Below are positions 1 to 59,567 of a stretch of DNA of 59,567 nt, in pieces. Source of the DNA: Psammoneis japonica (taxonomy: Eukaryota); assembly GCA_008632985.1 (NCBI GenBank), contig QPGO01000042.1, positions 496,001 through 555,567 of the forward strand, written 5' to 3'. A program made the position numbers and the translations under genes. The notes under the pieces are model-generated. The model saw only the letters and a list, made by a program, of their open reading frames with translations, searched no databases and had not been told where the DNA came from. Numbering within the stretch: the first letter of the stretch is position 1; each line of letters opens with the position of its first letter.

Positions 1-2
1 AG

Positions 3-10812: not shown

Positions 10813-10858
10813 CATCATTCCTTACAACTATAACGCGTTCAGCTTCACACTTATGCTA

Positions 10859-19804: not shown

Positions 19805-19830
19805 ATATATATATATATATATATAATATA
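19805..19830. repeat. (TA)n microsatellite
   Basis: atatatatatatatatatataatata. Confidence 0.9.
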
Positions 19831-19879
19831 TTACGGTACTTCTATCCCCCTTCATCTGCCCAAAAAAAAAGTATGATAG

Positions 19880-38562: not shown

Positions 38563-41500
38563 GATCCATCTTGATCACAGCCAATGGGGTCTGTGTCCAC
38601 AAGCATTTTTGTTGCATCATGACCTCTGCAGTCACTGTGCATGCTTGAGTGAGCTTTGCTCACTCTCTCAGTCAGTCATTGTCCGTGTCCAAGAATGCTC
38701 TGGTCTTGCATCAAGAAGCAAGAAGACAAGGGCGTGTCCACAAGCCTGCACAAACTGTCCAGGGAAAACCCACAGGCAGGTTCCTTCAATTCCAAGTTTT
38801 GTGGTGCAGACAGAGCAGATCAAGTGTTCAGTCTTCTAGTCAAAATGGCTCTTGCTTCAGGTTTGGCAGGGAGCTTGGCCTTGTCATCACTTGTGCCTTC
38901 TTCTCTGAGCTGTTCTTTGGCAAGCACCCTGCTGCAACAACAAAATTCAACACACAGCCCATCACCATGGTTGCAATCACCTCCCTCCCTTTGTGCCATC
39001 ATCCCAGCTCAGAGCACAAAAAGCCAGGCCTCATTTGACTCAGAGTTGAGAAGCAAGATGTGTGTGCATCTGTGCTGCCTTTTTGAAAGTCAACCACTTG
39101 GGGCAAGGTTGTTGCAAGTCAAAGGACAATCATCATTTGAGGTGGGAGCAGCCACCAACTCATTTTCCAACCCAAGCATTTTCTCTTTGCACTGGTTGAG
39201 CTCCAATTTGCATTGCTTCAGTTTCTTTTGAAGCTGGTCTGCGCTGTTCTCAATCTCCTTCTTCTCATCCTCCTGGTTTGCAAGTGCAGGGTTGCTGCTG
39301 AGATTTGCAGTGATGTCGTCCTTCTCTTCAGACTCACTTCTGTTTCAGTGCTGCCATCTTGTGCACATTTTCTTTGCAACAGCTTGAGTTTCTGTCAATG
39401 CTGGCTGCATGAGCAAAAGAAGCTTTGGGACCATGAGCACTTTGCAGTTCAACTGTGCAGTGTGCCACAGGACCCATGACACAGCAAACCTGCTGCGCCT
39501 CACATGCATGGGTGCCACGCATCTGCTTTTCTGCTGGTTGCTTGGTCATTCCCAAGCAGGGTCAGAAAGTTCACATGCAATGAAGCTTGAAGGCAGGCAG
39601 CAGCTTGGCAGTGGAAAATCATCCCACCACACAAAGCAGTTGCCACCACCACAGCGCCCCTTCTCAGGGTCAGTCTCATTTGTCACCCACTCTTTTGTCT
39701 TTGAGTTGTGCACCCTTTTGTCTGGTTTAAAATGCCAAGGAGCCAGCCACAGCCCCATGTGCAGCTCATTTTGAAGCTTGTCCTTTGCCACATCTGAGAG
39801 GTTGCCACCCACAGCATTTGCAATCTTGGGCAAAATTTCATTTTGTTGAGGTGTCCTTGTGTTGGTTTGGACAGAGGCCAATCATCAAGCAGCTGTCATT
39901 GCAGCAACAGCAACTCTGTTTGCAACCAAGTTCTTCATTGTGAAGAAATGGAGACATGTGGAGACCCTGCCCTTGACAGCTGCTTTCTTGGCACATTTTT
40001 GGGAAACGTCCTTTGATGGTGGAAAGTGCAGAAGTGGCTGGAGTTGTGATGCACAGGAGGGCAGTTTCATCTGGTGATGGAGCATTTTTCCTTGCCAATC
40101 AGCTCAGCAAAGTGCAAGCCAAGTGACACCTCCCAGGAACTTGGACACTTCCTCGACACTTTGAAAAATGCAAACAAAAACATGGCAAGGTCAGCAGTGC
40201 AAGCCAGGGTGTCACCATCATTGGCTGCTTTCTTTGGTGCATTGTGTGCTGCAAAGAAGCCAAAGGATCTCTCCAATGGTCAGCAGCAAAAGTGCCCAGT
40301 GCCAAAGCACACAGAGCAGTGCTGCAGGCCATTTCTGGTGTGCTGGGCATTGGCCAAGCAAGGGGTGGAGCCCCACCAGCTGACAGAGCTTCCTCAACAA
40401 AAGCTGTTGGCAGCTTTTGCATGGAGTGCATCATTCACACACCAAGTGCCCCACAGAAAGAAAGCTGTGAGGCTGGCATGGGATCAAACCACACACCAGT
40501 GTGGCAGCACACACACACCAACAGCAGCAGCCACAAGGGCCAGTGCTGAGGAGTGGCAAGCGCCTTTCTTGCTTCTTGCATGAGTCTTTTCTTCTTGTTC
40601 TTTGACAATCATTTTTCTTCCATGAGAAAAGCAGCTGTTGTGCATCTCATTTTTGCAGCTGCTGCATGTGCAAATTTTCTGGCATGACATGCCATCCTGT
40701 TGCATGCACTTGATGTGCTGCCCCCTCCCTTGCCCAGCTTGTGCGGGACACCAGTGTGATTTTTACAAACAAAAAAGTCCTGGCCAAATTTTGACTGAGT
40801 CAAGAAGCTCATTGTTTAAAAATCACACCAGCATGGGACAATTTTTCCCAACAAGCAGGCACGTGCTGCAACAATTTGATGCCCCACCTCAACTGGAACA
40901 GCCACAAGCAAGAATGATCATCCAGTGCAAATGCTTGCCTGGGTCAACATGTCCCATCATGCCCCAGCTGGCAAATCCAGCAGAGTCCAGCCACTGGCTT
41001 TTGCAACATTTTGTTTGACAGACCTCTTTGGCAACTTTTTGCAGCTGGCATGCATTGCACAGACCCACACTGTTTTTGTTCCATGAGCTCTGCACACACA
41101 GGGGGGCATCACACAGTGGCCAGTGGGGGGTGCTGCTGATGTGCATCAGCCACACAGAAGTTTGAACAATGCACTGCAGCCAAGTGCACAAACAGTCTTT
41201 TTGTTGCTCTCATTGTGTTCGTGCAGATGATGGATTTTCTGCACCTGCCTTTGCACCATCTGTTGGCAAACAGCAGGCTCTTGCTCCTTTGGGCAACTTT
41301 GTCCTCACCTTCTTTTTGATTGTTGTGGTCAATGCACATGTGATTTTGTTGGCCTTGGTGGGCCACCCTTTGCAGCATGCCTTGTCTCCCTTTTTTCTTT
41401 TTCTTGGGTGCTTCTCCACTCTTTTCTTTGCTGTGCAATGAGACAAGAGCTTGAGGTTCTTCACGCTCTCTGTGCCTTTGTGTTGGTGAGGTGCAGCTCA

Positions 41501-44500
41501 ACCCAGGTTTCCATTGGGCTCATCTTCAGCTCTTTCTTGCATCTCAACTGCACTGGGTGGCTTCATTCTGTTTGCATTGCTGCTGTTTTGAAGCTCCTGC
41601 TTAAATGCAGCTGATTTGGCTGCCTGTTGATGTCATTGTGCCAGCTGATTGCTTGCATTTTGCTCACTCTGGTGCCCGCCCTTTGTCTTTCTAGGATTTC
41701 TCCTGCAACAGCTGCAGCACAAACCTGGCGCCAATGGCAGTGCTCTTCTTCTTGCGTGTCATCTCCATGTCATCCAGCAGGGTCATTTTGCAAAAGTTTG
41801 TCTTGCTGCCCTTCACCAACACATTGTTGCAGTCTGTGTGAGAAGGGCACAAGCTTTGTTGTCTTCAGCACTTTTGTTGTTCTTTTGCTTTGGCGCAGTC
41901 AATGACAACAAACAGCAACAGGATCTGACAAGGCTGCCCCAAACAACAGGACAGCGGGCTCACTCCTGTGAGAGGAAAACTTGGTCCTTGTTCACCAGCC
42001 AAAGTTCTTGCAGAGGAGCAACACTCACACACTTGAAAGTGCCCCTGTGCACAAGAAGACAGCCCCAGAGGTGTGGCACAGCTGCCAGTTTGTTGCTGGA
42101 GAAAAATCAAGTGGAGGACACAAGGAAGAAAAGAGACAATCCCGCTCTTGTTTGTGGCGTGGCACAGAATGCCCTGACAGCAGCTTTGTGCACAAAATGT
42201 GAAGTTGACACAGGTCAAACAGAGAAGAAGTTCTAAGTGAAAGTGAACATGGGGAATGAGAGTGCACTTGCACAGAAGATGGCACCATCATGGTTGCATG
42301 CAAATTGGTGCAAAAACTGGTGAAAACCACAGAGAGGTGTGTGACAAGTCATTTGTGGCAAGGGCATGTTCTGTGCTAAAAGAGCACACTGCCAGCCATG
42401 CTGCCCAGAATGGCTGCCCCAGAGAAAAACAAAAAGAGTGCAGCTCAGTTGTCCAACTCATGGCTGTGAACACAAAGAGAGAGCAGCAAGTCACCAGCAG
42501 CACTGACTTCATTCAATGTGTCAACAAACAACTTTTGATTGCGCAAAACATTGTTGCCCACATTCTTGTGCCAAAAAGATCTCCAAAGCTGAGACCACAC
42601 ACACTGAAAGTGATGGCACACAAATGGGCAAAGTCACTGAAGCTGTCTGCATTTGGGGAAAAATGCAAAAGTTCAACAAGAAAATTGTGCCAAATTGCAC
42701 ATGAGAGGATGCTGCTGCAGCAGCATGTGTCATGGCAATGCCTCTCAGCACATCTCAGCAACACTGCCAAAGGAGCAGCACTGGAGCAGCCAAAGGCTGG
42801 ACAAAGTCACACAGGAGGAAGGTGCTTCATTTTGAGCCAGGGGTCAGAAATGCACACATGTGGGCTGATGCAAGGAGAGGCTGCTGTGCCCACAAAGTGC
42901 CAGCAGCAGCATCTGAGGGGATCTTCTTCTTGTTGCTGTGGGACTGCAATCTCAGGAGAAGCCAGGGGCAGCATGAAGATCAGCACAGCACTTGCAATTG
43001 GGGTGCCAGCAAGCCAGCCAGCCAACCAATGCTGGTGTGTGGTGGTGCACAGAGGCCAAATCACAAACATCAGCACCACTTTTTCAAGAATGCAAAGATG
43101 TGTGTGTGTGTGTGTGCATGTGTTTGAGGTGCATTGCTCTGTGTTTGTGTTGACTAGGTTCTCTTTGGCTCTGCACTTGCATGCTGACTTGCAAATCCCA
43201 TTGTGGCAGGCACACCAATGCAGTGCTGCTTGTCAGCATCAACTCACAAATTCCTTCACAAAAAGAACCTTTTGCAGCTGGGCTGCCCCCTCATGCAATG
43301 AAGCCCTGGCAGCACTCCCCCCCAAACTCACCTGTTGGGTTGTCAGTGTCATCTGGCTCTGGCCGCACACAGCTTGCATGCCACTTTGACTTGACAACCT
43401 CTTTTTCAAGTTCTCACCCCTGAGCTCATCTTGCATCAAGAGAAAATGCTCTCTCTGCCATCAACAAACACCCAACACCCCCACCCCCCAGCTTTCCTGA
43501 CATTGTCCTGGTGCACCCACCATGCCACTTGGCACACCCAGCCAAAAATGCACCAGGTGGCAGCACACTGATCAGCAAGCAATGTTGACAAATGAAGCAT
43601 TTTTTTTCATTTGCAAACTGTCAAAATGCACAGCTGCCTTTTTGCACAACAGTTTCCAAGTCACAACAAGCCAGACAACACCTTGCCATCTCCTGTGTTG
43701 TTGTTGTCAATGATGAGGATGTGTGCTGTTGCAAGTCCACAACTGCCACCCAGCAGACTTGTGGGGTCCTTCATTTGCAGAAAGCTGTGCCACATTGTTC
43801 ACAGAGAAAAGCCCAGGTTTGCAACCATTTTGTTGGTTTGAAAACAGTGGTGCACACAGACTTGTTGTTTGCAACAAATCTGTTCTGTTTCTTTGTTTGG
43901 AAAGTCTGGCATCATGTTGGTCTGTTGAATGCAGGCATTGCAGAGGCAGAGTCACATCATTGGGGGTTGTGGACAGGCAATGATTTTTCAACAATGGCAA
44001 GAATGTGCCAGAACAACTTGCAAATTTGAAGGCATTTGTCATCATCGAGAAACACAGAAAGAACTTGACTGTGAGGGGCACACAGCAGAAATTTTGCACC
44101 ACTGCAGATCTCTTTCAGGCAACGTGGTGTTGCCACTCAAAAAAGCTCCCACTGACTGTGGCAAATGGCAGGCCAAACTTTTGCAGGAGAGAAAGTTGAA
44201 AAACCTTTCCTGTGTGCATTTGCCCCATGGGTTGCCTTCAAGGTGGGGGGCTGGACTCTTGTTGGCTGTTGTGATGAGCTGTGCATGTTGTGCATTGAAG
44301 AAAAGTCTCGCCAAAGGTGCCCCAGTGGTTTTGTGCCAACTCCACCAAACATGGCAGCTTTGTTTGGCATGCCAGTGACAAAAAAAAACTCCAGCCACTG
44401 CGTGTCTCATTTTGGCCAGTGTGCTCCACTTCTTTGAGCAAGAAGAGACTTGCAGCCACTGTGGAGCCCTTTTGGCCTCTCTGCACTTGGCAGGGAGATC

Positions 44501-45340
44501 TTTTGTTTTGTTTGCTGGGCTTTGTTTTGCACTGTTCACATGGGTGGTGCATGATCAGCACACCCAACACACCTGGCCTTCAACCTTTCCTTCCCCATCC
44601 TTCCAGTGCACATGCCACCAAAGGGTCAGGACTCAGATGTCTTCTTCCTGTGTTCTGCTGCAGCTGCACTCTGGTGCTGCCATGGCCAGCCTTGGACAGA
44701 AAGTTGTCGACAATGTCAATGACTTCATCAAACTCTGAGCCAATGGTCAGCTTGGTTTCATCACAAGCATGCACACAGAGGATTTGAACTTGGCTCAGGT
44801 TTTCAAGGGCACTTGGCGCAAAACAAATTTTGCAAAAGCACGTGTTGCTTGCCTTTTCAAGTGCTTTGTTGCACACTTGTTGACGCCAATGATTTCCAGT
44901 CCATGGCCAGTGCAGGATGTGGCCTCAGAAGAGGAGAGAGAGAGTGAGCCAAAAGCCAGATGGCCCAAAGGTGCCACACATTTTTTCCCTTCTCCCCCCT
45001 TTTGAGAGAGCGGCGAGTCCTCGTCTGCTCCTCCAGAGCCAGAGAGAGTTTGGGCCAACTGGTCAATTTGCCACACACAAGGGAGAGCACCAAGACTTGG
45101 CACTTTTGTTCTTCCTGTGAGCAGCAGAAAACAAGAGCACCATTCTTCCTCGAATCACCCCTCACTCAAAGCCAACTTTGATCTCTGCTGGGGGTCACTC
45201 AACGCCCCTCTGGAGTGGCTCATTTTTTTCTCAATGCTTTGGCAGCTGCATGACAGCACAACTCATGGCATTTTCCTGCACAAACTGGGTTGTCATTTGT
45301 TTTTCACTGAGCAAGGGTTCAAAGAGCCTGATCAGAAGAA
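38563..45340. mobile_element. Old degenerate repeat-derived sequence, unassigned
   Basis: Extreme TpA and CpG depletion, TG/CA saturation, coding-like remnants with no recognisable domain. Confidence 0.4.
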
Positions 45341-46063
45341 GTGTGGGAAGCAGCAGAGGGGACACGGCGGAAGGGGCTGCTGAAGCGGGAGGCGCGCAAA
45401 ACATCCCCTTTGGCGAACAGACGCAGCCGTGCATTTTTGACGTTTTTTGCAGAAAAACTGAAATCTGTCAAAATCTGCAAGGTTCCAAAATTGGCTCCTC
45501 CTCTTTTAGGTGGAACTCTCTAGATCGAAGTCTGAAACCGAAAGATTTTGGATTGCCGCCCTCGCTGCTGTCAGAAAATGGAGCCATGATGATTGCCTGC
45601 ACCAATCATTTTGCTGCATTTTGCGCCGGCGTTCGAACCAATTGCAACACACAACGGTTGTTTCGGTGCGCACTTTTGCGCGACCCACGCGACATGACAA
45701 CATGCGCCAGTGCGTGGTGCTGGTTGTTTTGCTTCTGACCGTTCTGTCTTCTGTGAGGTTTCATGAGGCTGTCTGTGTGTGTTGATGTTGTCCAGTTGTG
45801 CATGTTGATGTTGTCCAAGGCAAGCTGCGTTGGACCAAGTGAATGTGGAAATGTACGAAATTTGCGCATTGTTGCAGTTTCTTTGCCAAATGGTCAGTCC
45901 TCATTTGTGGCCATGCTCAATCCGCGGCGGCTTAAGTGAAAGTCCATGTGTGTGTGTTTTGCGTGTTGATGCAGTTGTCTTTGCCAAACAGTTGTTTGTA
46001 ATTTGCTCAATTCCATTCTTTCTGGCCACACTTCTTCTGAAGGGACTTTGCTTGCTCCTTCTC

Positions 46064-46408
46064 CTACTCCGCCAACTCCTCCTTGGTGAAAAATCTCCCC
46101 GACTGCTGTGGAATCGCCGCTGCATGTGCTGCCTTTAGCTCCTCCATGGTTGAATCATCCTTGGGCACGACCGTTGTTTCCACATGATGACTGTCCACTG
46201 TCGTGTTGTCTTGCACAAGTGCAGAAGTGACATCAAAATTTCCCGAAGCAAGGTCAAACGCCGCTCTTGCTTCTTCCAAGGTAATCTCCTCTTCGTCTTC
46301 CTCATTCATCAATGACTGAAGAAGTTCCACACGTGTCTGCACCTTTTTCTTGTCCTCACCAGTTTTCTTTGGCTCGTCTGCCTTCTTTGTTTGTTGTTGC
46401 AAATCCAT
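46064..46408 (-). pseudogene. Small ORF with UBA-like helical segment downstream of the Helitron helicase
   Basis: 'ITLEEARAAFDLASGNFDVTSALV' resembles UBA-like folds; charged N-terminus. Confidence 0.3.
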
Positions 46409-46603
46409 GTTTTCTTTGCTGCGTTCGCGTTTCTTGGTTTGTTGGTTAAAATCCATTCGACGTTGTGTGACGCATGTGCAGATTTCCATGCAATGTGCTG
46501 ATCTAATCGAAACATTTTATTTTACGAAATTTCCGCATTTTTACGGCCTGGGGTCGCCAAATGGTTGTGCAGTGGTTGAGCATCCTAATCTGATGTTTGC
46601 GCA

Positions 46604-49600
46604 CTACACCAACATTTCTGCGCACTGTTGCTGAGAAAAATGCGTGGCGCTTCTCTCCTTCATGAGTCTCATCAAGGCTTCGTAACCTTCTGGGACCTTG
46701 CATTTTCGCAGGTCCTTGCTCAGTGGCTTTCGCATGAACAGCCCTTCTCTGGTCTTTACTCTGGAGAGCACAACACACACCCAATTCTGAGTGCAGCTCC
46801 AAGAGTGTACAAACAACTGCGGGACTCCACTCCCTTGCAGTTTGTGCCCTGCAGTGGCATTGTTGATGACAAACGGCAGCTGGGTTGCCTTCAGTTGGAA
46901 AGTGTGCCTTTGTTTGTCGCCTTCTTCTAAAATTAGGCTGGGCTTGGTGATGCAAGCCCTGAAAGCATTTGTTTTTGGCTCAACTAAAAACTTCGCGGGG
47001 TCGATGCTTTTGTTGCAGTGTTCCAATGCAACGTGGTCTACCTGACTGGCAAGTGCAGCAGGAATGCCAATGTTGTTGTCTAAAGTCACTGGTCTTGGTT
47101 CCTGTCCTGGTTTGAAAACAACCTTGTCAACAGTGGCTTGCGTTCCGTTTGCTTGACTGTTTGCTGCATTTTCGTTGAAAGGTGTCATGACTCTGCATCT
47201 TCTGTAAATTCGCAAGACTGGATCCATTCTTCCTGATTGCATGACAACGTCTCCTTCACCACAGTTGTTCCAGAAGCTGTTGCAAACCGGAAATGGTTGG
47301 CAGAGTCTCGTGCCATTCTGCACCTGCAAGTCGTCACTGAAAATCAACATTGAGTCAAGGACGTCTCCATCTCTTCTGTGCAGTGTTTCTACTCTTTTTT
47401 CGAATGGGCCAGTGTCAATTGCATCTCTGTCCTTATTTGCGCACGTGGCATGGTGGAGGTCACTGGGCAGATCATCTTCATTCTGAACTGCTCGTTCGTT
47501 GATGTGCTCCACATCGTCAACTGCAATCTCACCAGTGCGGAATCTCTTGAGCAGTTTTCCCCATGATGGATCGTCTTTAAACCTGTGCACACCACGAAGT
47601 TCTGTGCAGCAGTTGATCCACTCGTGAAACTCGGGACATGCATCTTTGTGCAGTGCTTTCACTCCTTTTCCGACTGGTTCTAGTTGCCTGAGGTCACCTG
47701 CGAAAACAATGTTCATGCCACCATGCGGCTTGCTCAATTCGCTCTTCAATGCTGTCAAATTCTCATGGAGTTTTTCTAGTTCTCTCTTGCTTGCAAAAGA
47801 AATCTCGTCTGCCACCAAAAGTCTTGTGTCTGACCATGCTTCAATTTGCTCTTCGGTTGTTTGCTTTCTTCTCATGAGGCATGCAACTCGGTGGATTGTG
47901 TCCCCTTTGAGAATGGTGGCAGCCACTCCGGTCAGTGCAGTCACTCTGATTGTGCTTGTTGTGAACGGCTGCTCAACAAGCGAGCAATGCTCTCTTCCGC
48001 ATTCCATGACGAGGTCCATTGTGGTTGATTTGCCACTTCCACCTGCACCATGCAAAAAACACACAAGTTGCAACGTTCTGCATCTTTGCATTTCCACGAG
48101 TTTCTTCAATCGGCAAAGGTTTGTTGCGAATTCATGTCTGCCATTTCTCCTGTTAAGTCCATTGCGTGACGTCTCGTCTTGAAGAGCGTCTTGGCAGCAA
48201 GTGAGCACAAAGGTTCCTGCTAGAATTTCAAAGGCACGCTGCTGTTGCCTGTCCAGTCTTGCTTTCCTGGCCCAGTCTACGACACTCACTGCAGATCCGT
48301 TTGCTTGACGCACATCGACGTGTTCTTCCAAACCTGTCACATCCTCAAACGACCTTCTTGTTCTTTGCGTTCCAGTCAGCATCACTCGAACAATGTCATC
48401 TCTTGACAGTGGTCTGCTGTGGATGTGTTGTTGCACTCCTTCATTCTGGTCTTCCTCGTCGGTGTCATTGCCGCCCTCTAGATTCTCAAAAAGTTGTCGT
48501 TCATTGACCTGGCTTTCCTCGTTTGGTGGGTCAGTGTGCATGTCTGCCAAGCATTTGCAACCACCCATGTGTGAACCTTTCTGTCTTGCACGTTTGCCAC
48601 TCAAATGCGCAGGAATGACTGCTTGGTCGCTCAACCCAATGTCATCGTCTTCTGGCTGCTCTGCCATTTCTTCCAAGAGTGCATCCAGTGGTTGACCCTG
48701 AATGGCGCCTGAAAGACCTTCTTCCTCGTCACTTTCGCAACAGTCAAACGCAACGTCAGCAGGTCTAAATTGCTCCGTCTTTCTTTGCAGATCGTCAGAT
48801 GTGCTTTTGAGATGAAGGCAGTTGGACTCAGCATCCTGTGGGTTCTGCAAGAAGTTCAAGTTTTCCTCTGCAATGACACCTGCTACCACGGAGAGTTGGA
48901 ATTCACGCAGGTGTGTGTGGGTTGTTGGTTTGAGTTCCGTCATTGTTCTGCAAGGCGCAAACAAGGCCAATGCCAACTTGCAGCACAATTCTTTGTCCAG
49001 CGTTGTTGGTTGCTGCGGATCCACAAGGCAACTGCCAAACTTGGCTGCATCAGGAAAATCATGCTGAAGTGCTTTTGGCAATCGCGGTTGCTGTCGCTGT
49101 CTGACACCTTGAAGAAACTCATTCTTCGTTGAATTGCAAGACGGGTGCCTGTGCGCTCTGTTGTCGAACATCATCATGCCGTGTTCGTTTTTCCTTGTGT
49201 TGCGAAGAACTTCGCATTCACTGAAAAACGCAAACGGACTGAGATTCTCCAGTGCTGTTGGACGACACAGGCAGTGCAAGGCCTGGCATTGGAAGAACGG
49301 TGCATCGCCAAAACAGGCTACAGTCGCAGACACTTCGTCTCTTTCTAGTGTGCTGACAATGTCTTTCAAGGGGCACCATGCGGTCAAATGAGATTCGATG
49401 AAACGGCTTCCATTCCTTGTCATGTGAGACGCAAGTGGTGGTCCAATGACGTTCGTCATGCGAGCAAGCACCCCATGTGAGACGTCTGATTGCTTCTGAT
49501 GCATCAGATGCGTGTTTCCGTAATTCCGTCGCTGTCCTGTTCGCAGTTCGAAGCACTTCGTCGTACGATGCAGTGTCATCTTTCTGGGTGTCTTTTAGGA

Positions 49601-52236
49601 TGTGCTCAATCGTGTGTTGAGCAGACGGTCCAGGCATCAACAATGCAATGTTTGTGTTGCATGTCAGTTTTGATCTGCTTGTTGCAGGGCACGACACGTT
49701 TTGAAAAGCATCGCACTTTCTCCTCTTCGGAACAACTTCCTTCACGCACCGACACGTAAAAGTTCCATCCCAGCTGTGCCACTTTATCTGAGTGTCATCT
49801 GCGTTCCTTGCTGAATTATTTGGACACGAAGCAGCTGGTTGCCTGTGACTGCAGTCACCTGGTTTGAGCTCCTCTCGTTTCCTTTTCCTTGACAGCACGT
49901 CCAGTTCCTCGTGTGGGTTTTTTTTACGCATTTTACGTAACTCTGCGCATTTGGGAAAACACGACTTCGTAACGTGCATGTGATGGTTGTAAGCTGCGTC
50001 CGGCACATGTGCCTCTGTTGTCCCTTGCAGACCACTTCGCTGGCATTGTACACACATTGCTTTCAGTCGCTTTGCATGGTTGTCTGGACAGCGAGTCAGG
50101 CCAGGTGCACGGTGCCGTGACTGTGAAAAGCTTTCTACAAACTCAACGTTTGTCCAGTGCTTGGTGCAGTGACGACAACAAGCAAACATTCTGTTCTTCG
50201 ACTGCTGGCCGTCTTTGTGCCTCAGGTTTCTTAGCTGTTGGTCGTCTGCTGCTTTTGGAGAGGTGCAACACATTTTTGGTGCTGCACAGTCATGATCGGA
50301 TGCTTCACGCAACGCGTTGGTGCTGAAGTCCTCGCTGCAGATTAATTCCGTGCTGCAGATCTTCTGAACTGTGTTGGTGAGGCACTCAGCACCTTCGCGT
50401 CGGATCTGTCTCATTGGCGAATGCAGTTTCTCTCTTGCATTGTTGATCGATGCAAACCAGATCTGCATGTGTCCGTGTGCTGTCAGACGCCCCTGCTCCT
50501 CAACTGCGGCTAAAAATGCGGCTGGCCTGCCAATGTAGAAGTTAAAGTTTTCTCTTGGTTGGTTGGCGCTCAGATCCCAACCCACTGCCTCTTCCATTGC
50601 AATGTCAAACAAGCACTCGAGTGCAAAGGCTGTTAGACTGGGAAACTTTAGACGCAGTTCATTGCGTTGCTCAGCCCTGCTAGCAAGAATTTCGTCCATC
50701 AGTTGTGTCACGTCTTTGTTTGGGTCCAGGATGACACCCAAGTGCAGTTGTGCAAGAAACGAATTTGCATCGTCCGGACTGACGGTTAAGAAAATGCCAC
50801 CCTGACCAAAATGATGCTGACAAGTTTCGGCGTTTCTCCTCATTTTCTTTGCTGCTTCGTCACTGTGTGGCAGAGACGCAGATGCAACGTCGAGTGCACG
50901 CAAAAAGTGGTGCCTGAGTCCCGCCCAAGTTGCGATCACAAACAGCTCTGTCCACATCGTCCACTGTCAGTTCGTTTGCAAACTGTGCAGCCTGATTCTT
51001 GTCCCTGACTTTCCACCCTGCGCTCTGCAGCATCCTTTGCTTCATTGTCAAGTTGCAGCACATTAACACGAAGAGCTGCTCGTGGAAGTGAGGCTGGGAA
51101 ATCCGTGCCAAGTGGTCGGCATGGTGTGCAAGGTTGGTGCCATCTGTGAGACTTCCGTCTTTCTTCATTCTCGTCTCATTGATTCCTCCTCTGCCAAAAG
51201 GAAACTGCAGCAGACACGCGTCAATGAAGTTGTTGCCTTTGAAATCACTCGCAGATTCTTTGGACAACTGTGCTTGCACCTCTAAATCAAATCTGTTGGC
51301 AGTGGCTTCGTGTGCAAGATCTTTGAAGCAGTCCAGGTTGCACTGACCACCGGTCGCAGGAGACATGGTTCCATCAGGAAAGCAAATGTGAAATGACTCT
51401 GAGGTCTCAACATTTGCACTTTCTCCTTCTTCTTTGCCGGTGCCATCGACAAGTGCGGGATTCCGCAGATTACGCCTGGCTTCGTCTAGATTTGTCTGTT
51501 GGCACACCCACTCTTGGTTGTGGTGCAACAGCCATTCCATCGCCCTTGGCATGCAGTGCGTCCCAATTCTGTTCTTTGAATGCACAAGTTGTCTTTGCTC
51601 CGGAGTCATCTTTCCAGTCATCAGTGCAATCACATTCTGATGTAAATTCAGTGCGTCGAAGTGCACAACAGTTCTTACGATGCTTTGCATCTTGACTTTG
51701 TAGTGTGTCAGACTTCCCTGAAGCTTCTTCTGTTTGCCGCCAAGGCAACTGAAGCAGCATCCGCATGTTTTCACTGGTGTGAGCATTGCCAATTCTGCTT
51801 GGGTTAGAGACAACAGTTCATGCGGTGGGGTGCCGAAACAGCAGTTGTTCGCCATCGCGTACATTGGCACAACGGCTCTTCCCAGGCTTCTTCGGCATTC
51901 GCTGCAGCAAGTGAATCCGTCGACGCATCGTCTGTCTTCCTGTGCTGCGCATTGGGCATGGGGAGAAAGCAGCAGGTCTTTGATCCAATCAGCATCTTCA
52001 TGCTCTACAGTGTGGCAGGACTTGAGACGATCAGATGCGCTGTTCCAGTCTGAAGGGGTGAGCAAGTTTCTTGCTGATTCCAATGTTTCGAGCGGCAAGC
52101 AGCAAACTTCTCTAGGTTTCAGCAGAACGTCACAGACCAAACATGCGTGTGGTCTAAATTCTCCGTCTCTGTGCAGACAAAGCATCTCAAACTTTCCATT
52201 GATTGCATTGCAAACACGGGAGTTGGCCTCGTCCAT
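46604..52236 (-). pseudogene. Helitron-type Rep-helicase (HUH Rep + Pif1 helicase), split over three frames
   Basis: Rep motifs 'IFLTVSPDD', 'VEEQGRLTAHGHMQIW', 'FPFGRGG'; Pif1 motifs 'GAGGSGKS', 'TGVAATILKGDTIH', 'DEISF', 'GDLRQLEPV', 'HKLQG', 'VVLSRV'. Confidence 0.92.
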
Positions 52237-52365
52237 TTTAATTTAAGCTGATGCTTTGGCTCAACAAATTTCAAGAAGTTGCTCAGTGAAAACAGTTGTT
52301 TTTTCAGTGTGATCACCGTGAAGCTGCGATCGGTGCTGTCCAATCACCACAGCGATGTGTGTTTT

Positions 52366-53000
52366 CTCGCCACCTGTGGCACTGCGACTGGTGTCGTCCA
52401 GTCACCGCAGTGGCTCTGTCCAGTTGATCAACGAACCGCGTCGGTGCCACCCGTTCACCGCAGCGCTGTGTCGTCTCTCACAACCTGTGCAATCAGGTCA
52501 CTGTGAGTGCTGCGACTGGTGCTGTCCAGTCACCGCAGCCGAGTCAATCAGTTGCTTGACGAACTGCGTCGGTGCCACCCGATCACCGCAGTGTTGTGTC
52601 ATGTTCTCACAACCTGTGCGATCAGGTCTCTGTGAGAGCTGCGACTGGTGTCGTCCAGTCACCGCAGCTGAGCTTGTGCGTTGTCTCACAACCTGCATTG
52701 CGAGGTGCAGCGCTGTGTTGTTTGCTCACAACCTGTGCAATCAGGTCGCTGTGAGAGCTGCGACTGGTGTCGTCCAGTCACCGCAGCCAAGTGAACCAGT
52801 TGCTTGACGAACTGCGTCGGTGCCATCCGATCACCGCAGCGTTGTGTCGTGTTCTCACAACCTGTGCGATCAGGTCTCTGTGAGAGCTGCGACTGGTGTC
52901 GTCCAGTCACCGGCAGCTGAGCTTGGTGCGTCATCTCACAACCTGCGTCACCAGGTCACTGTGAGAACTGAGAACTACGATCGGTGTGGCCCAATCACCG
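52366..53000. repeat. Hairpin-rich tandem array (~248-bp higher-order unit x2, internal ~129/79/40-bp subunits)
   Basis: 'ctcacaacctg' recurs at 52477, 52606, 52685, 52725, 52854, 52935; 'ctgcgactggtg(tc/ct)gtccagtcacc' recurs five times. Confidence 0.9.
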
Positions 53001-53159
53001 TAGTTGGATGCTTTTCGTTTCCCTTTGCGCAAAGGTTCTGTCACAAAAAAGTGAGACGAAAGTGTGCCTCTTTCACCTCGACGGAAGAGTGACGTGTGCG
53101 TTCCTCCCACGTCCTTCTTCGCACCAGACGCACGACATCCCACTTAGTTTCGTCGACGT

Positions 53160-53262
53160 TGAACATCCCATGGGATGAGATTTGGATCTTGTTCAAGTTG
53201 TTTCGACCATCTGCTCTGAACATTCCATGGGATGAGATTCGGATCTTGTTCAAGTTGTTTCG
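53160..53262. repeat. 57-bp-period duplication
   Basis: tgaacatYccatgggatgagattYggatcttgttcaagttgtttcg occurs twice. Confidence 0.85.
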
Positions 53263-53808
53263 GCAATCTTGGTGGTGGGCACAGCTTCACGCAAATTCCG
53301 CAGAATCACGCTTTAACGAGTGGCGGGGCAGTTGAGTTGGTCGTGTGGCAATGACAGTGCGATTGACGTCATTCGTGTTTCCAAAGTGCGCGCGAACCTC
53401 CAAATGGGTGATGGGCCCACCTTGGCTAACTGCCGGTGCAGTGTGCAGTGACAGCGATGGCGTCGACCGTTTGGCGACTAGATTTCGTGCGCGATGGCCG
53501 CGCGGCAGTAACGGCTGAAATGCACACAAAGCACGGACGGAATTGCACGTGATTTTACGCATTTTCAGCAAACTCAGTGCGACTTTGCGTGCTCCGATCC
53601 TTGCATCTGTTTTGTTCAAATTGAACCCACACACCACTTGCAAGTGCTGACACCTGGAAGGTTGCCTTGTTGCAGTTCGACGTGTTTGAATCTGGTTGCT
53701 GACGTTGCCAGTTCTCCTTGGCATGATGTGCGCAGCTCTGCTGGGTCTTTCTTGGCACTTCTGAACGATCGCACTTTTTGTTCCCATAATTTCTCTCCGA
53801 CTGATTCG

Positions 53809-54679
53809 ATGGCACGCAAAAGAAACACAACGACCTCCCCGGCTGCGAAAGCCAAAGTCGCCGAAACCAAACAGAAGAAGGCAAAGACGAAGTTTTCTGA
53901 TGCTCTGTTGAAGAAACTAAGTCCGCCCCGCAAGACCAACGGCTTGACCGACGACGACCTTAAACCGGAAGACTGCCTTGCCAAGCACGGGTTCAAGCTT
54001 TCCAAATCCGCCGGTTCTGACGATGGCAGCCATTCTGACAAGGACGCCTCCTGCGCTGCGCCACCATCACTGTCGGCCGCAAGAAAGGCGTCGTTTTTCG
54101 TCTCCAAGCCAAGAATCCCCTTTTGACCAATGTTTGGTCGGAGAAGGTTCTGTTTGACAACCTTGGCAGCAGGACTCCGTGGGCGGTTCAAGTTGGATTC
54201 CACCCTTACGCTGGCAGGTGGGTTCACGAGGGCGAGTTGCAGACGAACGCCAAGAACTGCGCCGTGCGTCTCTTCTTCATCTTCCTCGAAGAAGTCCCAA
54301 CGATGCCAAAGTGCGCCGGCCTCGGAAGTGCATTGCGAAGCAGCTGAACGATGACCCTGAGAACAACACCGAGGTCTTCGTTGAAGACGACTTCTTCTGG
54401 ATGAAGGATGCTGTTTGGTCCGAAGTGATCGGCAACGAGGCGGCGCTTGCCGAGCTTCAGAAGGAAGGTGGTCAGTTTCACATCGGTTGGTCTTCCCAAA
54501 ACAAGAACTTACTTCACAGTTGCTTCTACGAGGGGTCGTTGCCTGTGGAACTCTGTCGTCTCATTGGAGCTCCGGCAGAAGAAGCTGGAGAAGAGGCCGA
54601 CGATGATGTCGAGCTCAACTGCGAAGTTGACCTGAACGTCGATGACGACTTGGTGCTTCAGGACAGCGACGAAGACTGA
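53809..54679 (+). pseudogene. Unknown protein with basic N-terminus and acidic C-terminus, frameshifted
   Basis: Three successive coding-like frames: MARKRNTT..., ...TNVWSEKVLFD..., ...DDFFWMKDAVWSEVIG...DSDED*. Confidence 0.55.
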
Positions 54680-54766
54680 GTTGTTTTTTTTTTTGCCGGT
54701 GCAGTGTAAATTTGCAAATGTTTGGCAAACTAAGTGTCGATTACAACTCAGCTTTCCTCTGTCTCT

Positions 54767-55702
54767 TCAAGCATTTGCCATCTCCGACGACAACTTTACG
54801 TTACCGCGAAACAATGGCGAATTGAGTGGAGCAACTAGCGTGTGACGTCCAGCACAGTGACAGCAAAAAAACAGTTCAGTTGAGTTCTTAAGTAAAATTG
54901 GCCATTTCGCGACGGGTGAATGCTTCCGTTCCAAGTGTGTCGGAGTGGGACGTCGCATGTGCTGGCTGGTTGACTGAGAAGTCTCCTCTTTCTTGGTGCA
55001 CTTGTGGAAGACGAGATGTTTCACGTCTCCGCTGTGCCACAAAAGGTCGCCATCATGGCAATCCGCCGTGAAGGACTCGCACATCCACTCTCCCGCGTAC
55101 GACGCGAACAGCGGATCTAGCGCCACCACCACGGTCCCAGCACGACACAACTTCGAAAGCATCGCCTCTGCCTTCTGCTGTGTGTTCTTGTCGTCGACCA
55201 TGCGGGAGTTGCAGTTGTTGAAGAACACCTTGAGTCCTTTCTTTTTCCACAAAGGAGCCAGCCTCTCGTCCAAGAATGACTTGTTGATCAACTCTAACCC
55301 GCCGTTCGAGCGAAGGCCAGCACGATGAGCCCAACGTACAGCCTCTTGGTGACGATCGTGGTCGGCCTCGATGCTCACCACGGTGCAACGGCGACGAAGT
55401 AACTTGAGCCCGATGCTGGGTCCGGCAACTCCCCCGCCCATGTCGACAGATGCATCGCAGGTGTGATTCACGCCAAGAAGGCGTTCGTTCAAAAACACTT
55501 CGCTGCTCAAAGCGAAGCCAACTTCGCCGCCGTGCGAAGATCCGCTTCCGTCTCCGGAGACACGCCTGCTCTGGAACGCGGAGTCCGGAGCCGTTTGAAG
55601 ACAAAACTCCCCAACACTTCTGCAACGATGGTTCATCGCATCCAACCTTGTGGCAACATCAACCTTGCTTGCAGTGGGTTCGACCAGACGTCGCGTTTCC
55701 AA
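54767..55702 (-). pseudogene. Class I SAM methyltransferase, DOT1-like
   Basis: Motif I 'DASVDMGGGVAG', motif II 'VVSIEADHDRH', 'KVFFNNCN' (cf. DOT1 VxFxNN), 'RAGTVVVALDPL'. Confidence 0.6.
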
Positions 55703-56083
55703 ACCAAACTGTGACGTGCGCAGAATGCGTAAAATTACCGTCGCGCCCTCTGTGCGCGCGAAATTTTCAAACGCGGCGTGCTGCCTCTACCTGCGCATGG
55801 AGCAACGTACAAAGTCATTTTGGACAGATGTGCAGACGCGTTGAAACAATGAGACGCCTTTGGGCGATAAAATTTGTTTTGAATCTCGGCCTGCTTCTCA
55901 TCGTTGCCGCACTTGCATGTCCGTGTAATTCAAACGCACGAGCTGGCACGGCACGCAACGCACTTCTACGCGAGAACTCGCACTGAGATTGCCGTGGGAT
56001 GATCCTCCCTCCGCGGAGACAAAAACAACGCGACAACACTTCCGTCATCACATTTTGAAACACATTTCAAATTGAGACACACC

Positions 56084-57511
56084 ATGTCGCAACTACCTCG
56101 TGCCTCGCTGCGTCGTCCTCCAACGACAAGCACTTGTCGCATGAGTTCAAGCCGGTCTCGACAGTGTGGGGGTTTGGGACGTGCAGCTCGCAGCCCGACA
56201 ACAAGCAAATGCTTCTCGCGATTGGGTTTCGACCCCACTCCCCTGGAGTCCGCCGGTCCCTGTCAACAGAGTTTTGCTTTGGGTGCTCTTGAGGCAACGG
56301 AAAGCAGACACATCTCTCGATTGGGTTTTGACCCCACTCCCCTGGAGTCCGCCGGTCCCTGTCGACAGAGTTCTGCTTTGGGCACTGTTGAGACGACAGT
56401 GACAGTGTCAAGCAGCGGAACATTTGCCGGCAAGTTCGCACACACGTTCTCTGCGAACACCGCATCGTCAATGCGCACCAGGACATGCGAGAACATGTTG
56501 AGGGCTCAACTGCCACTTCGCAAGGCCCACCGCAGCCGCAGGCGAATCCGCAGCCGCGCCAGCAGGAAAACATCCAAGATTGCTCGCCTCGTTCCACTCG
56601 CACCGTGCGCCACTGAGAGTCTCTCCGTGCACTGCGCAGCTGGCCACACTCTGGTTTGTGACGGCGACTACACTCAGCCTGCACCACCTTGTCTTGCTGA
56701 CATTGACTTTGCCGAATTGGCTCCTCTGCTCGTCTGTGACCCTGTGCTCGATCTGAAGCCTTTCTTTGGCTTGGACGGTTGCCGCTGCGACAACACCTGC
56801 ACCCTGCTGCCGCGTTCTGCTGTGGTGTTCAGCTCCCCCAACCCAGCAGAACTAGTTGCTCAGTGCCGAGCGCTCGAAGCACTAGAATGCTGCACCGCCC
56901 AGTCCACCGTGCGCGGCAAACAACGCGTTACCTTCATGGAGACGGACAGGAGCAAGCATTCCACGATTGGCCTGGCTGCCACGAGGGACGCTCGAATTTC
57001 TTGCAAGCAGCCTGGCACAGCCGACCAACACACTCACCACCTCACCAGACTTCTTTCACGCATGGAGCACCTTGTCAATGAGTGCGTGGACTGCCATCCT
57101 CAGGGCATCGCTCGTGTCAAAAAGTTTCACAACTGGAAATCCCTGGTGCGGTCAGATGGCATTTTCTCCTCTCTGGCGGCTGGGCGCAATGTCTTCCTCA
57201 ACGCCCATCGGGACCAGGACTTCTTCCTGTCAGCAGTCACCGTGGTGGGAGTCCCTCCGTCCGGCAGCTGCACCATGAATGACGGGATTGTGGCGCACTT
57301 CTGCTTCCCTGCCGAAGGCATCTCCGTTGCACTCCGGCTTGGTGATGTCATCATTTTTAACCCCACCAAGTGCCACTGCATCTCCAGCAGGACAAACTCA
57401 AACGACGAGTTCTTCTGCGTGTCTCTCTACCTGAAGAGTGCTGCAGTGGGCAAGAACAACAATTCAATCCCCCTTTCTCTAGAGGAAGAGACCATTCTCA
57501 GGCGACTGTGA
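56084..57511 (+). CDS. 2OG-Fe(II) dioxygenase, TET/JBP-like (TpA-mutated, probably inactive)
   Basis: 'NVFLNAHRDQD' (HxD), 'VALRLGDVIIFNPTKCHCIS' (distal His), 'CVSLY' strand; DSBH-like spacing. Confidence 0.7.
   Translation: MSQLPRASLRRPPTTSTCRMSSSRSRQCGGLGRAARSPTTSKCFSRLGFDPTPLESAGPCQQSFALGALEATESRHISRLGFDPTPLESAGPCRQSSALGTVETTVTVSSSGTFAGKFAHTFSANTASSMRTRTCENMLRAQLPLRKAHRSRRRIRSRASRKTSKIARLVPLAPCATESLSVHCAAGHTLVCDGDYTQPAPPCLADIDFAELAPLLVCDPVLDLKPFFGLDGCRCDNTCTLLPRSAVVFSSPNPAELVAQCRALEALECCTAQSTVRGKQRVTFMETDRSKHSTIGLAATRDARISCKQPGTADQHTHHLTRLLSRMEHLVNECVDCHPQGIARVKKFHNWKSLVRSDGIFSSLAAGRNVFLNAHRDQDFFLSAVTVVGVPPSGSCTMNDGIVAHFCFPAEGISVALRLGDVIIFNPTKCHCISSRTNSNDEFFCVSLYLKSAAVGKNNNSIPLSLEEETILRRL
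56213..56392. repeat. 99-bp tandem duplication in the 5' part of the dioxygenase ORF
   Basis: 'SRLGFDPTPLESAGPC..S.ALG..E' encoded twice. Confidence 0.9.
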
Positions 57512-57524
57512 CAGTGCAAAATAA

Positions 57525-57622
57525 CTTGCTAAATTTGCGTAAATTTGCTGACTTTCTGTGCTCAGGCGACTGTGCAGGCACCTGCTAATTTGCTAGATTT
57601 GCGTAAATTTGCCGACTTTCTG
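57525..57622. repeat. Short direct repeat between the convergent dioxygenase and SET ORFs
   Basis: ttgctaRatttgcgtaaatttgcYgactttctgt occurs twice. Confidence 0.8.
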
Positions 57623-57733
57623 TTCTTCCTCGTTCCCATTTTTCGAACCACAACTGGGGCTACGCCTTTCCAACTAATGCTGCAGTTTCGCTGAAAAACA
57701 CCAACACACTGTGCTGCTAATTTACAGAGCACA

Positions 57734-59567
57734 CTACACGGCAAACGTTTTGCCAGACGCAGAGCTTCTCCCCCCCGACTTGGGGAGTAGACGCGATTTC
57801 TTCTTCCGATTCATGGCACCCGACGTCGCCTTCCTCTTCTTCTTCTTCTTCTCCGATTCGTCCAAGTTGCATCTGCAGAGAAATTCCTCCCCGGGCATGA
57901 TTCGCTTCGTGACTGCCAAGCACCCGTCGTTGTAGAACTCGCAGTTGTTGTCCGCGTGTTGGCTTGCCTTGATCTTCTTCTTGTCCTTGAATGACTCGGT
58001 GGCATCGTTCACGCAGTGCATTCCGAGGTAGAGTGGATGGGAATTCTTGTTCCCTGGACCGCTAAAATCAAGCGGTTTTGGCTCCACTGTGACGCAGCAG
58101 CCCTCGCTGTCACGGATGGTGGAGCAGCACACGCTGTGGTCTTCTCCAAACTTGCTGTCGTGGTCGCACCACGAGCAGCTCCTCGTCGTACCGGGCACCC
58201 TGGGGCCCACGTAGATTCCAACCGTGCTGCCTTTCTGGAACTGGCGCAAAGCAAAAAAACCAATGCCTGCGCCCCTCCGTTGCGATGCGCGTAGCTCGCC
58301 CACCTCCACCTCCTTGGGGCCTGCGGAGCGAACGGACTTTTCGAGGCAAAACAACGCAGGTTGAAGTGACACGGCGCCTCATCCAAATGTGCACACTTCT
58401 GCACTTGCTCTCTTCACGAGATGGACCAGTGCGAGCGACCACCCCGCTTCGAAAGCCTCGACGGCGGTCTTGAACACTTTGTTGCTCTTCGGCGTCGAGT
58501 CTGGGATGCCCCTCTCGCCGACTTCCGTGCGGCACTCCACACCCACTTGCAGTGTTCGCCGTGAGCATTCGCGACGGCTTCAGGGTCGCTCCTGATGCAC
58601 CCCAGTTCTCCCAGCGCGGGGAACCAGAGGTCGGGATCATTCGGCGCATCCTTCATCAGGCACATGGACTCCTGGAATTTATCGGATTTTTCGTGCCGCA
58701 ACACCCAGTCCCACAAGTCGAATGACGGATCGTTGGGGTCCGGAAATTGCTTTCCTTCTTCTTCCTCTTCCGCCGTTGCTTTCGCGACCACTTTGGCCGC
58801 GGGCTTGGCTGCCTCCTCGCTTTTGCCGCTGCAAAAAGGTGGACCTCCGGTTTCACAAAGGTGGCCTGATCACCCACCAACTCGATCTTGCAACCGGCCT
58901 CAAGGAGCTGCTCGGCGGTGCAACCCAGCTGCTGTGCTTCATTCCAACCACAAATTTGAAAGGNTTGGCTCCGGCGGCACGGCTTTCTCCTCTTTTCAGT
59001 TTGGGACTGCGCCGGCTTCTCCGACATCCTTGCGCGTTCGGACTCGACGGACACACCCTCGGCACTTCCCTCGGCGCCAAGTGCAGTCATGGCAGCTGCC
59101 NNNNNNNNNNNNNNNNNNNNGAGTTCTGCCATTGGCACTTCCCTCGGCGCCAAGTGCAGTCATGGCAGCTGCCGCCGCGCCTTCGGCGCCCGTGAGTTCT
59201 GCCATGACTTCCGAGCTGCTGCATCCTCTGCTTTGCCAGACGCAACGATGTTGTCCTCCGCCATTCTAGCACCGTGATGACAGAGCTGCACTCACTGCTG
59301 TGTGGTGTGCTGCTTTGTTCCAGCCGTTGGCGATCCACATCCTTCTGCGCACGCAAACGTGTGACACTTTGCACCAAATTCCACGTAGTCGTCTGCACCT
59401 GTCTGCGTCCGTCTTCACTGCTGTGCGCACTACGCACTGCAGCGCACCCTTTCAAACCTTCATCAATGTTTGTTTTTTCCTTCCTTTTCCTTTTCTCTTC
59501 TTCTTCATCTGGCTGGGAGGAACTGCTGGACAGCCGGCCTCATTTCTCGGCATGTTGCCACGCAGAA
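57734..59567 (-). pseudogene. SET-domain protein (SET at ~57880-58300), frameshifted, 5' part beyond gap/window
   Basis: 'GAGIGFFALRQFQKGSTVGIYVG', 'LGMHCVND', 'NNCEF', 'TKRIMPGEEFLCRCN' (GEELxxxY position is now C). Confidence 0.75.
59050..59215. repeat. Tandem repeat spanning a 20-N assembly gap
   Basis: ggcacttccctcggcgccaagtgcagtcatggcagctgcc on both sides of the N run. Confidence 0.75.

Follow-up and report, generated by a model that had tools for sequence, protein, structure and literature searches.

A decayed Helitron-type element of Psammoneis japonica that may carry DOT1-like, TET/JBP-like and SET-like genes

Related elements and the Psammoneis locus

Genes for TET/JBP-type dioxygenases are found on Helitron1 and Helitron2 elements of Puccinia graminis, Pezizales and Agaricus bisporus, where the accessible part of the study proposes that they serve escape from methylation-based silencing (PMC12730594). 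A proto-Helentron of Phytophthora infestans carries a SET-domain open reading frame (ORF) without introns, described in the available text as Clr4-like with a CDD E-value of 3e-24 (PMC4067079), so that a SET gene on an oomycete Helitron-like element, as stated in a preliminary description of the present locus, is indeed on record. Fusions of transposable elements (TEs) with SET, and DOT1 in Mimiviridae, are reported in the accessible text of 10.1101/2021.11.30.470311. Here, we analyzed a stretch of 59,567 nucleotides from Psammoneis japonica (contig QPGO01000042.1 of assembly GCA_008632985.1, positions 496,001 to 555,567; hereafter "the window"), in which a Helitron-type replication protein–helicase gene (RepHel) lies beside ORFs for a DOT1-like methyltransferase, a TET/JBP-like dioxygenase and a marginal SET-like protein. 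On balance, we interpret the block from ≈45.5 kb to at least 58.96 kb as a decayed copy of a many-copy Helitron-type transposon of at least 13.4 kb.

Like the fungal elements, this block combines a RepHel gene with a probable TET/JBP-type dioxygenase gene, but it comes from a non-fungal host, the dioxygenase has diverged beyond recognition by Pfam Tet_JBP, and alongside it are found DOT1-like and SET-like genes as well as a fourth ORF. With the proto-Helentron of P. infestans and with Helentrons, it has in common the rolling-circle type and a number of accessory ORFs that include a SET-like one. However, the SET of the proto-Helentron is clear, while that of the window is marginal and PR/PRDM-like; the endonuclease domain typical of Helentrons was not seen in the window element; and the accessible text on the proto-Helentron mentions neither DOT1 nor TET (PMC4067079).

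The DNA itself bears a mutational signature known from Bigelowiella natans, where integrated viral DNA undergoes TpA>TpG/CpA transitions at ≈1000-fold background and TE-type domains are overrepresented in 124 TpA-depleted clusters, according to the available part of the preprint (10.64898/2026.01.13.699255). The window shares the fall of the observed/expected ratio (O/E) of TpA to 0.0–0.3, the rise of TpG+CpA to 1.2–2.1 and the multi-kilobase clusters with TE-type genes. In the available preprint text, however, the direct evidence concerns giant-virus and virophage inserts, a term search finds no mention of Helitrons, and the signature has so far been described only in this chlorarachniophyte alga. 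Term searches of the open-access literature, which are no proof of absence, found no paper linking DOT1 to a Helitron or other transposon or reporting all three genes together, and a search for Bigelowiella with Helitron gave nothing on a DOT1-carrying transposon or on the window element. TET/JBP Helitrons and SET Helentrons are known singly; the present element stands out by an unusually rich load of chromatin-enzyme genes, a new host lineage and its exposure to a newly described hypermutation defence.

The RepHel gene and the accessory ORFs

Pfam scans (12 ORFs in one scan and 60 of the 81 ORFs of at least 70 aa in another) bore out the preliminary description of a Helitron-type element: DUF6570, Helitron_like_N and PIF1 were matched, in this order, by three overlapping ORFs on the minus strand (Table 1). 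Contigs of a public sequencing run show that other genomic copies carry 14 additional nt at 50921 and 5 at 49454. With N placeholders of these lengths, RepHel reads as one uninterrupted frame of 1885 codons that opens at 52242 and closes with the stop at 46604. Thus, the RepHel of the family is a single intronless gene, which in the window copy was broken by two small deletions. The restored frame joins an HUH Rep and a Pif1-family helicase in one protein, the combination by which Helitrons are recognized.

Helitrons have 5′-TC and 3′-CTRR ends and a subterminal 3′ hairpin, insert between A and T, and lack terminal inverted repeats and target-site duplications. An inverted-repeat search gave no long terminal inverted repeats and no obvious terminal hairpin. 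Contig ends place the left edge of the repeated unit at approximately 45.49–45.52 kb, and a CTAG is found close to this edge, at 45520–45523, with no convincing hairpin beside it. The small ORF downstream of RepHel gave two weak PHROG matches to uncharacterised families (E 0.06–0.07), the only matches to PHROGs among eight window ORFs and P0001, a homologue of the DOT1-like ORF. The 17-mer AATGCGSAAATTTCGTA occurs twice on the minus strand in this 3′ part (45854–45870 and 46523–46539), with 0.22 occurrences expected; two of 100 shuffles reached two.

The three named ORFs lie on the 5′ side of RepHel, as the preliminary description had stated. In the order of the window, the block consists of RepHel (−), an array of 129-bp tandem repeats, a fourth ORF that we call gene X (+), and the DOT1-like (−), TET-like (+) and SET-like (−) ORFs, forming divergent and convergent pairs with short spacers. 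None of the three named ORFs passes Pfam alone (E ≤ 0.01). The domain calls fared unevenly: that of DOT1 held, through homologues and a profile search; that of TET/JBP gained moderate support from a protein atlas and a chain of homology leading to a phage protein; and that of SET stayed weak.

An exhaustive HMMER search over 1.84 billion protein representatives (E ≤ 1e-3) returned 14 homologues of the DOT1-like ORF, the best at 54% identity and E 9.2e-73, and the methionine at 55636 lines up with that of the homologues. Pfam DOT1 (PF08123) was matched by four of the 14 (E 8.7e-10, 6.3e-7, 6.6e-5 and 5e-3): P0003 and P0014 scored above the 23-bit cut-off, P0007 at 23.0 bits and P0012 below. When a profile of the ORF and 13 homologues was used, the 16 best PDB sequences were all Dot1/DOT1L (4.8e-8 to 1.6e-6), 15 of them labelled H3K79-specific and one "Histone-lysine N-methyltransferase", followed by yeast Dot1 at 1.1e-5 (profile positions 42–215). 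The ORF also scored 0.92 in the protein atlas, with mostly DOT1 clusters.

The hallmarks of DOT1 are motif I for binding of S-adenosylmethionine (SAM), an acidic residue after strand 2 and a (V/F)-N-N motif by the lysine channel. The ORF contains VDMGGGVAG, SIEAD and FFNN, and across 14 aligned sequences G117, G119, E140 and N191 are invariant and N190 is nearly so. The family thus shares with Dot1/DOT1L H3K79 methyltransferases the class I SAM core with the D-x-G-x-G-x-G motif, the acidic residue after strand 2 and the F-N-N motif, but differs in having conserved motifs of its own, SHGGEVGF and YKYTK, and in the long C-terminal extension of some members. We accept the ORF as DOT1-like, a predicted divergent branch of the DOT1 superfamily that is well supported by these matches. 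One of its homologues, P0004, is named from a metagenome-assembled genome of a diatom (Bacillariaceae); ordinary cellular relatives of this kind are a possible source from which the gene may have been captured. P0002, P0004, P0005 and P0020 are relatives of ≈600 aa with a long conserved C-terminal extension that gives weak matches to a second methyltransferase-type motif.

For the TET-like ORF as a whole, a word-based search found no homologue and a PDB search only Frizzled at E ≈ 1. Its C-terminal 313 residues, in contrast, matched one protein, P0015 (E 2e-22, 40% identity), with its 597-aa cluster mate P0019; conserved are the HxD, the distal His and, as a tail, CVSLYLKSA...NNNSI. P0015 matches a single protein family of a phage collection (tblastn E 0.05 over the entire collection; four records, one phage group), and the phage ORF so matched is Pfam Tet_JBP at E 3.6e-11. 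Pairwise BLASTP with the phage protein gave E-values of 7e-9 and 4e-6 along this chain, and hhalign of the ORF plus P0015 against it gave 88% probability over 88 columns. The HxD...H triad is aligned throughout, as AHRDQD and KCH in the ORF, AHVDRD and EPH in P0015, and AHVDSGD and EVH in the phage protein. In the phage record MZ577098.1 (538–1524), the Tet_JBP protein directly follows an HhaI-like cytosine C5 methylase, a pairing that fits DNA hypermodification derived from 5-methylcytosine (5mC). In the atlas, a protein-language-model search, the TET-like ORF scored 0.96, with 24 of 30 matches in a hit set whose displayed cluster is 82% Tet_JBP. The ORF is a probable TET/JBP-like dioxygenase, with moderate support. 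P0015 alone also gave a SAVED protein in a single-sequence PDB search (E 0.019, outside the core) and one weak PHROG match to an uncharacterised family (E 0.04).

SET domains have a conserved catalytic Tyr in a C-terminal E-L-x-x-x-Y motif. The C-terminal motif of the SET-like ORF reads PGEEFLCRC, with no catalytic Tyr; its Cys may be a decayed Tyr, as in the DOT1-like ORF. A word-based search gave no homologue, and the only two PDB matches were the PR/SET domains of MECOM and PRDM16 (E 0.8 and 1.2), in which both end motifs align. A SET domain is plausible here, if weakly supported. Other copies have one additional nt at each of 58534 and 58840; N placeholders at these sites open a frame of 260 codons (58382–59159), closed by a TGA that lies directly in the frame of the SET-like ORF. 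On this evidence, the SET gene may be considerably longer and extend to the window's end. Ns at 58964 and 59101–59120 fall within its presumed 5′ part, the longer run lying between exact 40-bp direct repeats (59061–59100 and 59134–59173), and the assembly is unsure there.

Gene X is split in the window by two 1-nt deletions: relative to it, other copies have one extra nt at 54046, in all of the depth at that site, and another at 54300, in part of it, and N placeholders at these sites restore a 389-codon ORF. A 314-aa ORF on the minus strand overlying gene X is probably an antisense by-product. The best-supported loose end, at 54324 and shared by seven contigs, was considered as an element boundary and rejected, as it reflects a 1-nt indel. 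The short tandem repeat between the convergent TET-like and SET-like ORFs keeps surviving GCGTAAATTTGC motifs.

Stop codons other than TGA are scarce in this DNA (24 + 15 and 14 + 25 for TAA and TAG, against 99 + 84 for TGA, on the two strands), and ORF lengths were compared with 300 Markov simulations of 52947–58960. The longest simulated ORF averaged 240 aa and reached at most 427 aa; ORFs of at least 502 aa, the length of the TET-like ORF, arose in none of the 300 runs, and ORFs of at least 339 aa, the length of the DOT1-like ORF, in 5%. At 214 aa, the SET-like ORF is within the chance range. The DOT1-like and TET-like ORFs align to their homologues with no gaps suggestive of introns, so that the intronless structure described earlier holds for these two.

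Table 1. Features of the window (positions in the 59,567-nt stretch).
Feature	Position	Strand	Details
LTR-like direct-repeat pair	24139–24383 with 30775–31019		247 bp, 87% identity (self-comparison); presumed long terminal repeat (LTR) element
LTR-like direct-repeat pair	33924–34290 with 38194–38562		369 bp, 93% identity (self-comparison); presumed LTR element
3′ part of repeated unit, downstream of RepHel	45519–46603	−	Depth and CpG step; left edge approximate
Small 150-codon ORF downstream of RepHel	46064–46516	−	No Pfam or PDB match
Helitron RepHel gene	46604–52242	−	Three overlapping ORFs in window copy; Pfam
RepHel ORF 3	46604–49594	−	Pfam PIF1, E 7.8e-15; AAA_30, E 1.4e-13
RepHel ORF 2 (Rep)	49218–50966	−	Pfam Helitron_like_N, E 5e-6, 27.3 bits (cut-off 28.9)
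RepHel ORF 1	50860–52242	−	Pfam DUF6570, E 1.1e-10
Tandem array	52382–52946		129-bp unit, 4.3 copies; between RepHel start and cassette
Gene X, fourth cassette ORF	53512–54676	+	Basic N-terminal part, acidic C-terminal part; no Pfam or PDB match
DOT1-like class I methyltransferase ORF	54767–55786	−	Stop to stop, 339 aa; likely start Met 55636
TET/JBP-like 2-oxoglutarate-Fe(II) dioxygenase ORF (probable)	56003–57511	+	502 aa; first ATG 56084; catalytic core in last ≈170 codons
99-bp tandem repeat in N-terminal part of TET-like ORF	56214–56392		
Short tandem repeat	57497–57626		≈64 bp; between convergent TET-like and SET-like ORFs; self-BLAST
SET/PR-like ORF	57734–58378	−	214 codons; weak Pfam SET
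Possible N-terminal part of SET gene	58382–59159	−	Contains N-run 59101–59120; no Pfam or PDB match

Repeat depth and the extent of the proposed mobile unit

Repetition was assessed by placing Logan contigs of one public run (one sample) on the window and summing their depth, a measure that does not give copy numbers and says nothing on whether the two halves of the block adjoin in other copies. The summed depth was 62–77 in the four bins of 43000–45131 and 2124–5931 in all 26 bins of 45132–58960, with the highest value, 5931, in the bin of the tandem array. At the left edge, bin 45132–45664 had a depth of 2362 and the next bin 4670, and a unique contig (depth 61.8) covers 44409–45518. The RepHel bins (2733–5267) and the cassette bins (2124–4682) agree within about two-fold. 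Among the 3773 contigs placed at 80% likeness or more, 1244 were at least 99% alike, 1210 were 95–99%, 1033 were 90–95% and 286 were below 90%. The element is present in multiple copies, as seen from a block depth 30–90 times that of the unique flank and from many indel, deletion and substitution variants. Because this step persists through all of the ORFs, single-copy host genes are ruled out, in agreement with the preliminary description, and both halves of the block are similarly repeated.

In one contig, 46603 is followed by 58547, so that RepHel and the cassette are both missing while the outer parts are kept, the form expected of an internally deleted derivative of a single unit. Further internal-deletion joints lie inside both the RepHel half and the cassette half, and the scanned ORFs of the block yielded no further transposase or integrase domain. 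By a small margin of confidence, we favour a single mobile unit that comprises RepHel and the cassette and has the gene content given above.

A number of observations weigh against this reading or against its parts. The ends of a Helitron (5′-TC and 3′-CTRR with a hairpin) were not found in the window, and the 5′ end would lie beyond it or in its N-containing end. A boundary shared by RepHel and the cassette was likewise not located, which leaves room for a separate adjacent repeat; the joint from 46603 to 58547 is a single contig of depth 61.5 with 40 letters on its shorter side; the proposed unit has genes on both strands; and RepHel and the cassette differ in GC content (0.48–0.51 vs 0.51–0.59) and CpG O/E (≈0.65 vs ≈1.0). 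All four metagenome loci with DOT1-like relatives, found by scanning with a five-sequence alignment, have no RepHel, TET or SET nearby, and one of these relatives adjoins a light-harvesting-protein gene, as an ordinary algal gene might. On the side of the domain calls, the DOT1-like ORF alone has no Pfam match even at E up to 10 and no single-sequence PDB match. Pfam Tet_JBP (PF12851) matches neither the TET-like ORF nor P0015 or P0019, and the 2-oxoglutarate Arg of the phage protein (QRFSC) aligns with E/F in the ORF and E/I in P0015, both of which instead have an Arg five residues after the distal His. The SET-like ORF matches Pfam SET (PF00856) over profile positions 1–102 of 105 at only E 0.017 and 16.0 bits, below the cut-off of 22.4. 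Of the checks proposed beforehand, profile comparison favoured two of the calls, with the DOT1 family profile finding Dot1/DOT1L and hhalign supporting TET as above. AlphaFold2, run on single sequences, gave no usable model of either the DOT1-like ORF or the TET-like domain (pLDDT 32.6 and 33.6).

The alternative to be taken most seriously, if still rather unlikely in our estimate, is that two or more repeat families lie side by side or nested, with a Helitron at ≈45.5–52.3 kb and a different multi-copy element that owns the DOT1, TET and SET genes and has its mobility gene beyond the window. Composition changes at ≈52.3–53 kb, where GC rises from 0.49 to 0.55, CpG from ≈0.65 to ≈1.0, and TG+CA falls from 1.5–1.65 to 1.16–1.42; the tandem array sits exactly between the halves; and the window ends in or beside the SET gene, so that more genes may follow. 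Fungal TET/JBP genes, moreover, are reported on 11 lineages of DNA transposons, mostly of DDE types, in the accessible text of PMC12730594, and depth sums do not prove adjacency in other copies. Against this stand the similar depth over all 26 bins, the contig that treats RepHel and the cassette as one deletable interior, the lack of any transposase or integrase domain found in 52.1–59.5 kb, and the same degree of TpA and Tyr decay in both halves.

We regard as very improbable an origin of the cassette from an integrated giant virus or other virus-like element. Such insertions are known targets of TpA hypermutation in B. natans, which was first described on viral inserts (accessible text of 10.64898/2026.01.13.699255), and DOT1 and SET homologues are reported in Mimiviridae in the available part of 10.1101/2021.11.30.470311. 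Most displayed atlas neighbours of the DOT1-like ORF are Nucleocytoviricota clusters, and the closest Tet_JBP cluster with a name is from phages, as is the one match of P0015 in the databases. However, a single insert would not account for a depth of 30–90 times the flank, searches turned up neither a viral hallmark nor a PHROG family, and three scans of IMG/VR, made with the DOT1 ORF, the TET domain and alignment A2, gave no relative except a discounted 25-residue match; the true homologues of the DOT1-like ORF include the diatom protein and one on an algal-looking contig. Slighter still is the probability that host genes, or chance ORFs lengthened by the loss of TAA and TAG, simply lie beside a Helitron. 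TpA depletion does lengthen random ORFs, as the simulated mean and the position of the SET-like ORF within range attest, antisense ORFs of 200–314 aa overlap real ones, and DOT1-like relatives elsewhere resemble ordinary genes. Yet the lengths of the TET-like and DOT1-like ORFs were never or seldom reached in the simulations, two of the ORFs have real homologues, and high repetition and hypermutation set the block, like the neighbouring TEs, apart from the single-copy host genes at 1–21 kb.

TpA hypermutation, decay and possible role of the enzymes

The first 21–23 kb of the window hold compact, ordinary eukaryotic genes (an ATG22-like transporter, a PHD protein, a ribosomal L25-like protein, an ABC transporter and MCM10), in which dinucleotide counts gave a TpA O/E of 0.5–0.9 and a CpG O/E of ≈1. 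In the transposon island that follows, at ≈23–59.5 kb, TpA O/E falls to 0.00–0.45 (mostly <0.25) and TpG+CpA rises to 1.2–2.1; over 45–59.5 kb, TpA O/E is 0.08–0.29 and CpG O/E 0.58–1.25. The composition of the cassette had thus been described correctly as CpG kept and TpA lost. However, the TpA depletion spans the whole island, including unrelated LTR-like elements, and therefore does not tie the cassette ORFs to the Helitron.

CpG O/E steps sharply at ≈45 kb, from 0.02–0.13 to 0.64. Arranged by element age, CpG O/E in the window is ≈0.9 for the 93% LTR pair, 0.4–0.7 for the 87% pair and 0.02–0.15 for the oldest stretch. CpG loss within the window tracks apparent element age, whereas TpA loss saturates early. 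Since element age accounts for the CpG level, we rejected CpG retention as a mark of escape from 5mC, which the preliminary description had considered a fit. In the presumed element at 24139–31019, numerous ORFs overlap in several frames, an effect that the loss of TAA and TAG predicts. The segments 31001–33923 and 38563–45000, with a CpG O/E of 0.02–0.15, a TpA O/E of 0.00–0.07 and TpG+CpA of ≈1.8–2.1, have the appearance of an old element into which a younger, LTR-like one was inserted; their ORFs gave no Pfam match. Self-comparison found no internal copy of the 45–59.5 kb region elsewhere within the window.

At a number of dinucleotides, one copy in the public-run contigs has CA where others have TG (e.g., 48887/48888, 49812/49813 and 51028/51029), and such paired differences indicate independent decay of an ancestral TA. 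The proteins changed accordingly: Tyr makes up 0.3–1.4% of six element ORFs (0.3–0.5% in the RepHel ORFs) compared to 1.3–3.3% of four host ORFs, and Cys 3.9–6.5%, a range that the RepHel ORFs span by themselves, compared to 1.1–2.2%. The DOT1-like ORF has Cys at five of the nine Tyr positions of P0001, and the Tyr of YKYTK, kept in 12 of 13 homologues, reads Cys. Hypermutation converted Tyr codons to Cys or His, and the window copy is a dead relic. Because A>G and T>C changes at TpA cannot make stop codons, frames remain open in the absence of selection, and we rejected intact ORFs as a sign of selection on this ground. A practical warning follows: in TpA-hypermutated DNA, long ORFs persist unselected, and their length is not evidence of function.

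The TpA dinucleotides that survive are unevenly distributed among sequence contexts. Relative to the host part (1–20000), the shares of contexts in 23001–59567 were 0.04 for ATAT, 0.22 for ATAG, 0.25 for ATAC, 0.75 for GTAC, 0.87 for CTAC, 0.95 for ATAA, 1.63 for CTAG, 1.75 for GTAA, 2.25 for CTAA and 3.67 for TTAA. This suggests that the editing favours 5′-ATA and spares 5′-TTA. A wider TpA sequence context is not mentioned in the text of the B. natans preprint open to term search (10.64898/2026.01.13.699255). The hexamer TTTACG/CGTAAA holds 10 of the 137 surviving TpA in 45500–59567, compared to 10 of 910 in the host part. It is found in spacers at 55730, upstream of the DOT1 ORF, at 57540 and 57604 in the 64-bp repeats, at 53556 and at 46523–46542, and its survival reflects either a protected cis-element or a context refractory to editing.

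Going by the known activities of the families involved, RepHel of intact copies would move the whole unit by rolling-circle transposition, and expression of the accessory enzymes would be driven by the short spacers between divergent genes. On the element DNA, the TET/JBP-like enzyme would have 5mC (or thymine) as the base to oxidise, while the DOT1-like and SET-like enzymes would write histone-lysine marks on its chromatin; together, they might sustain transcription of the element or shelter it from silencing by the host. In B. natans, the accessible text reports that H3K79me3 correlates negatively with expression and that TEs carry H3K9me3 and H3K27me3 (10.1101/2025.03.17.643675). For this reason, an anti-silencing toolkit is offered as a hypothesis, with the direction of the effect uncertain, and not as a reading of the sequence.

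A more speculative idea, to which we give little credence, is that the cassette acts beyond 5mC alone, as a counter-defence against host TpA-directed hypermutation and heterochromatin. In one route, the JBP-like enzyme might hydroxylate the thymine of TpA or oxidise a mark that guides the editor; in another, the DOT1-like and SET-like writers might hold nucleosomes in a state that does not recruit it. Copies like that of the window would then be those that lost the race.

Transposons with epigenetic enzymes of their own show how mobile DNA counters host silencing. If intact copies of this element exist, they would provide a natural system for asking which chromatin marks protect a transposon, and could show whether the enzymes interfere with the TpA hypermutation defence and how that defence treats multi-copy TEs compared to viral inserts.

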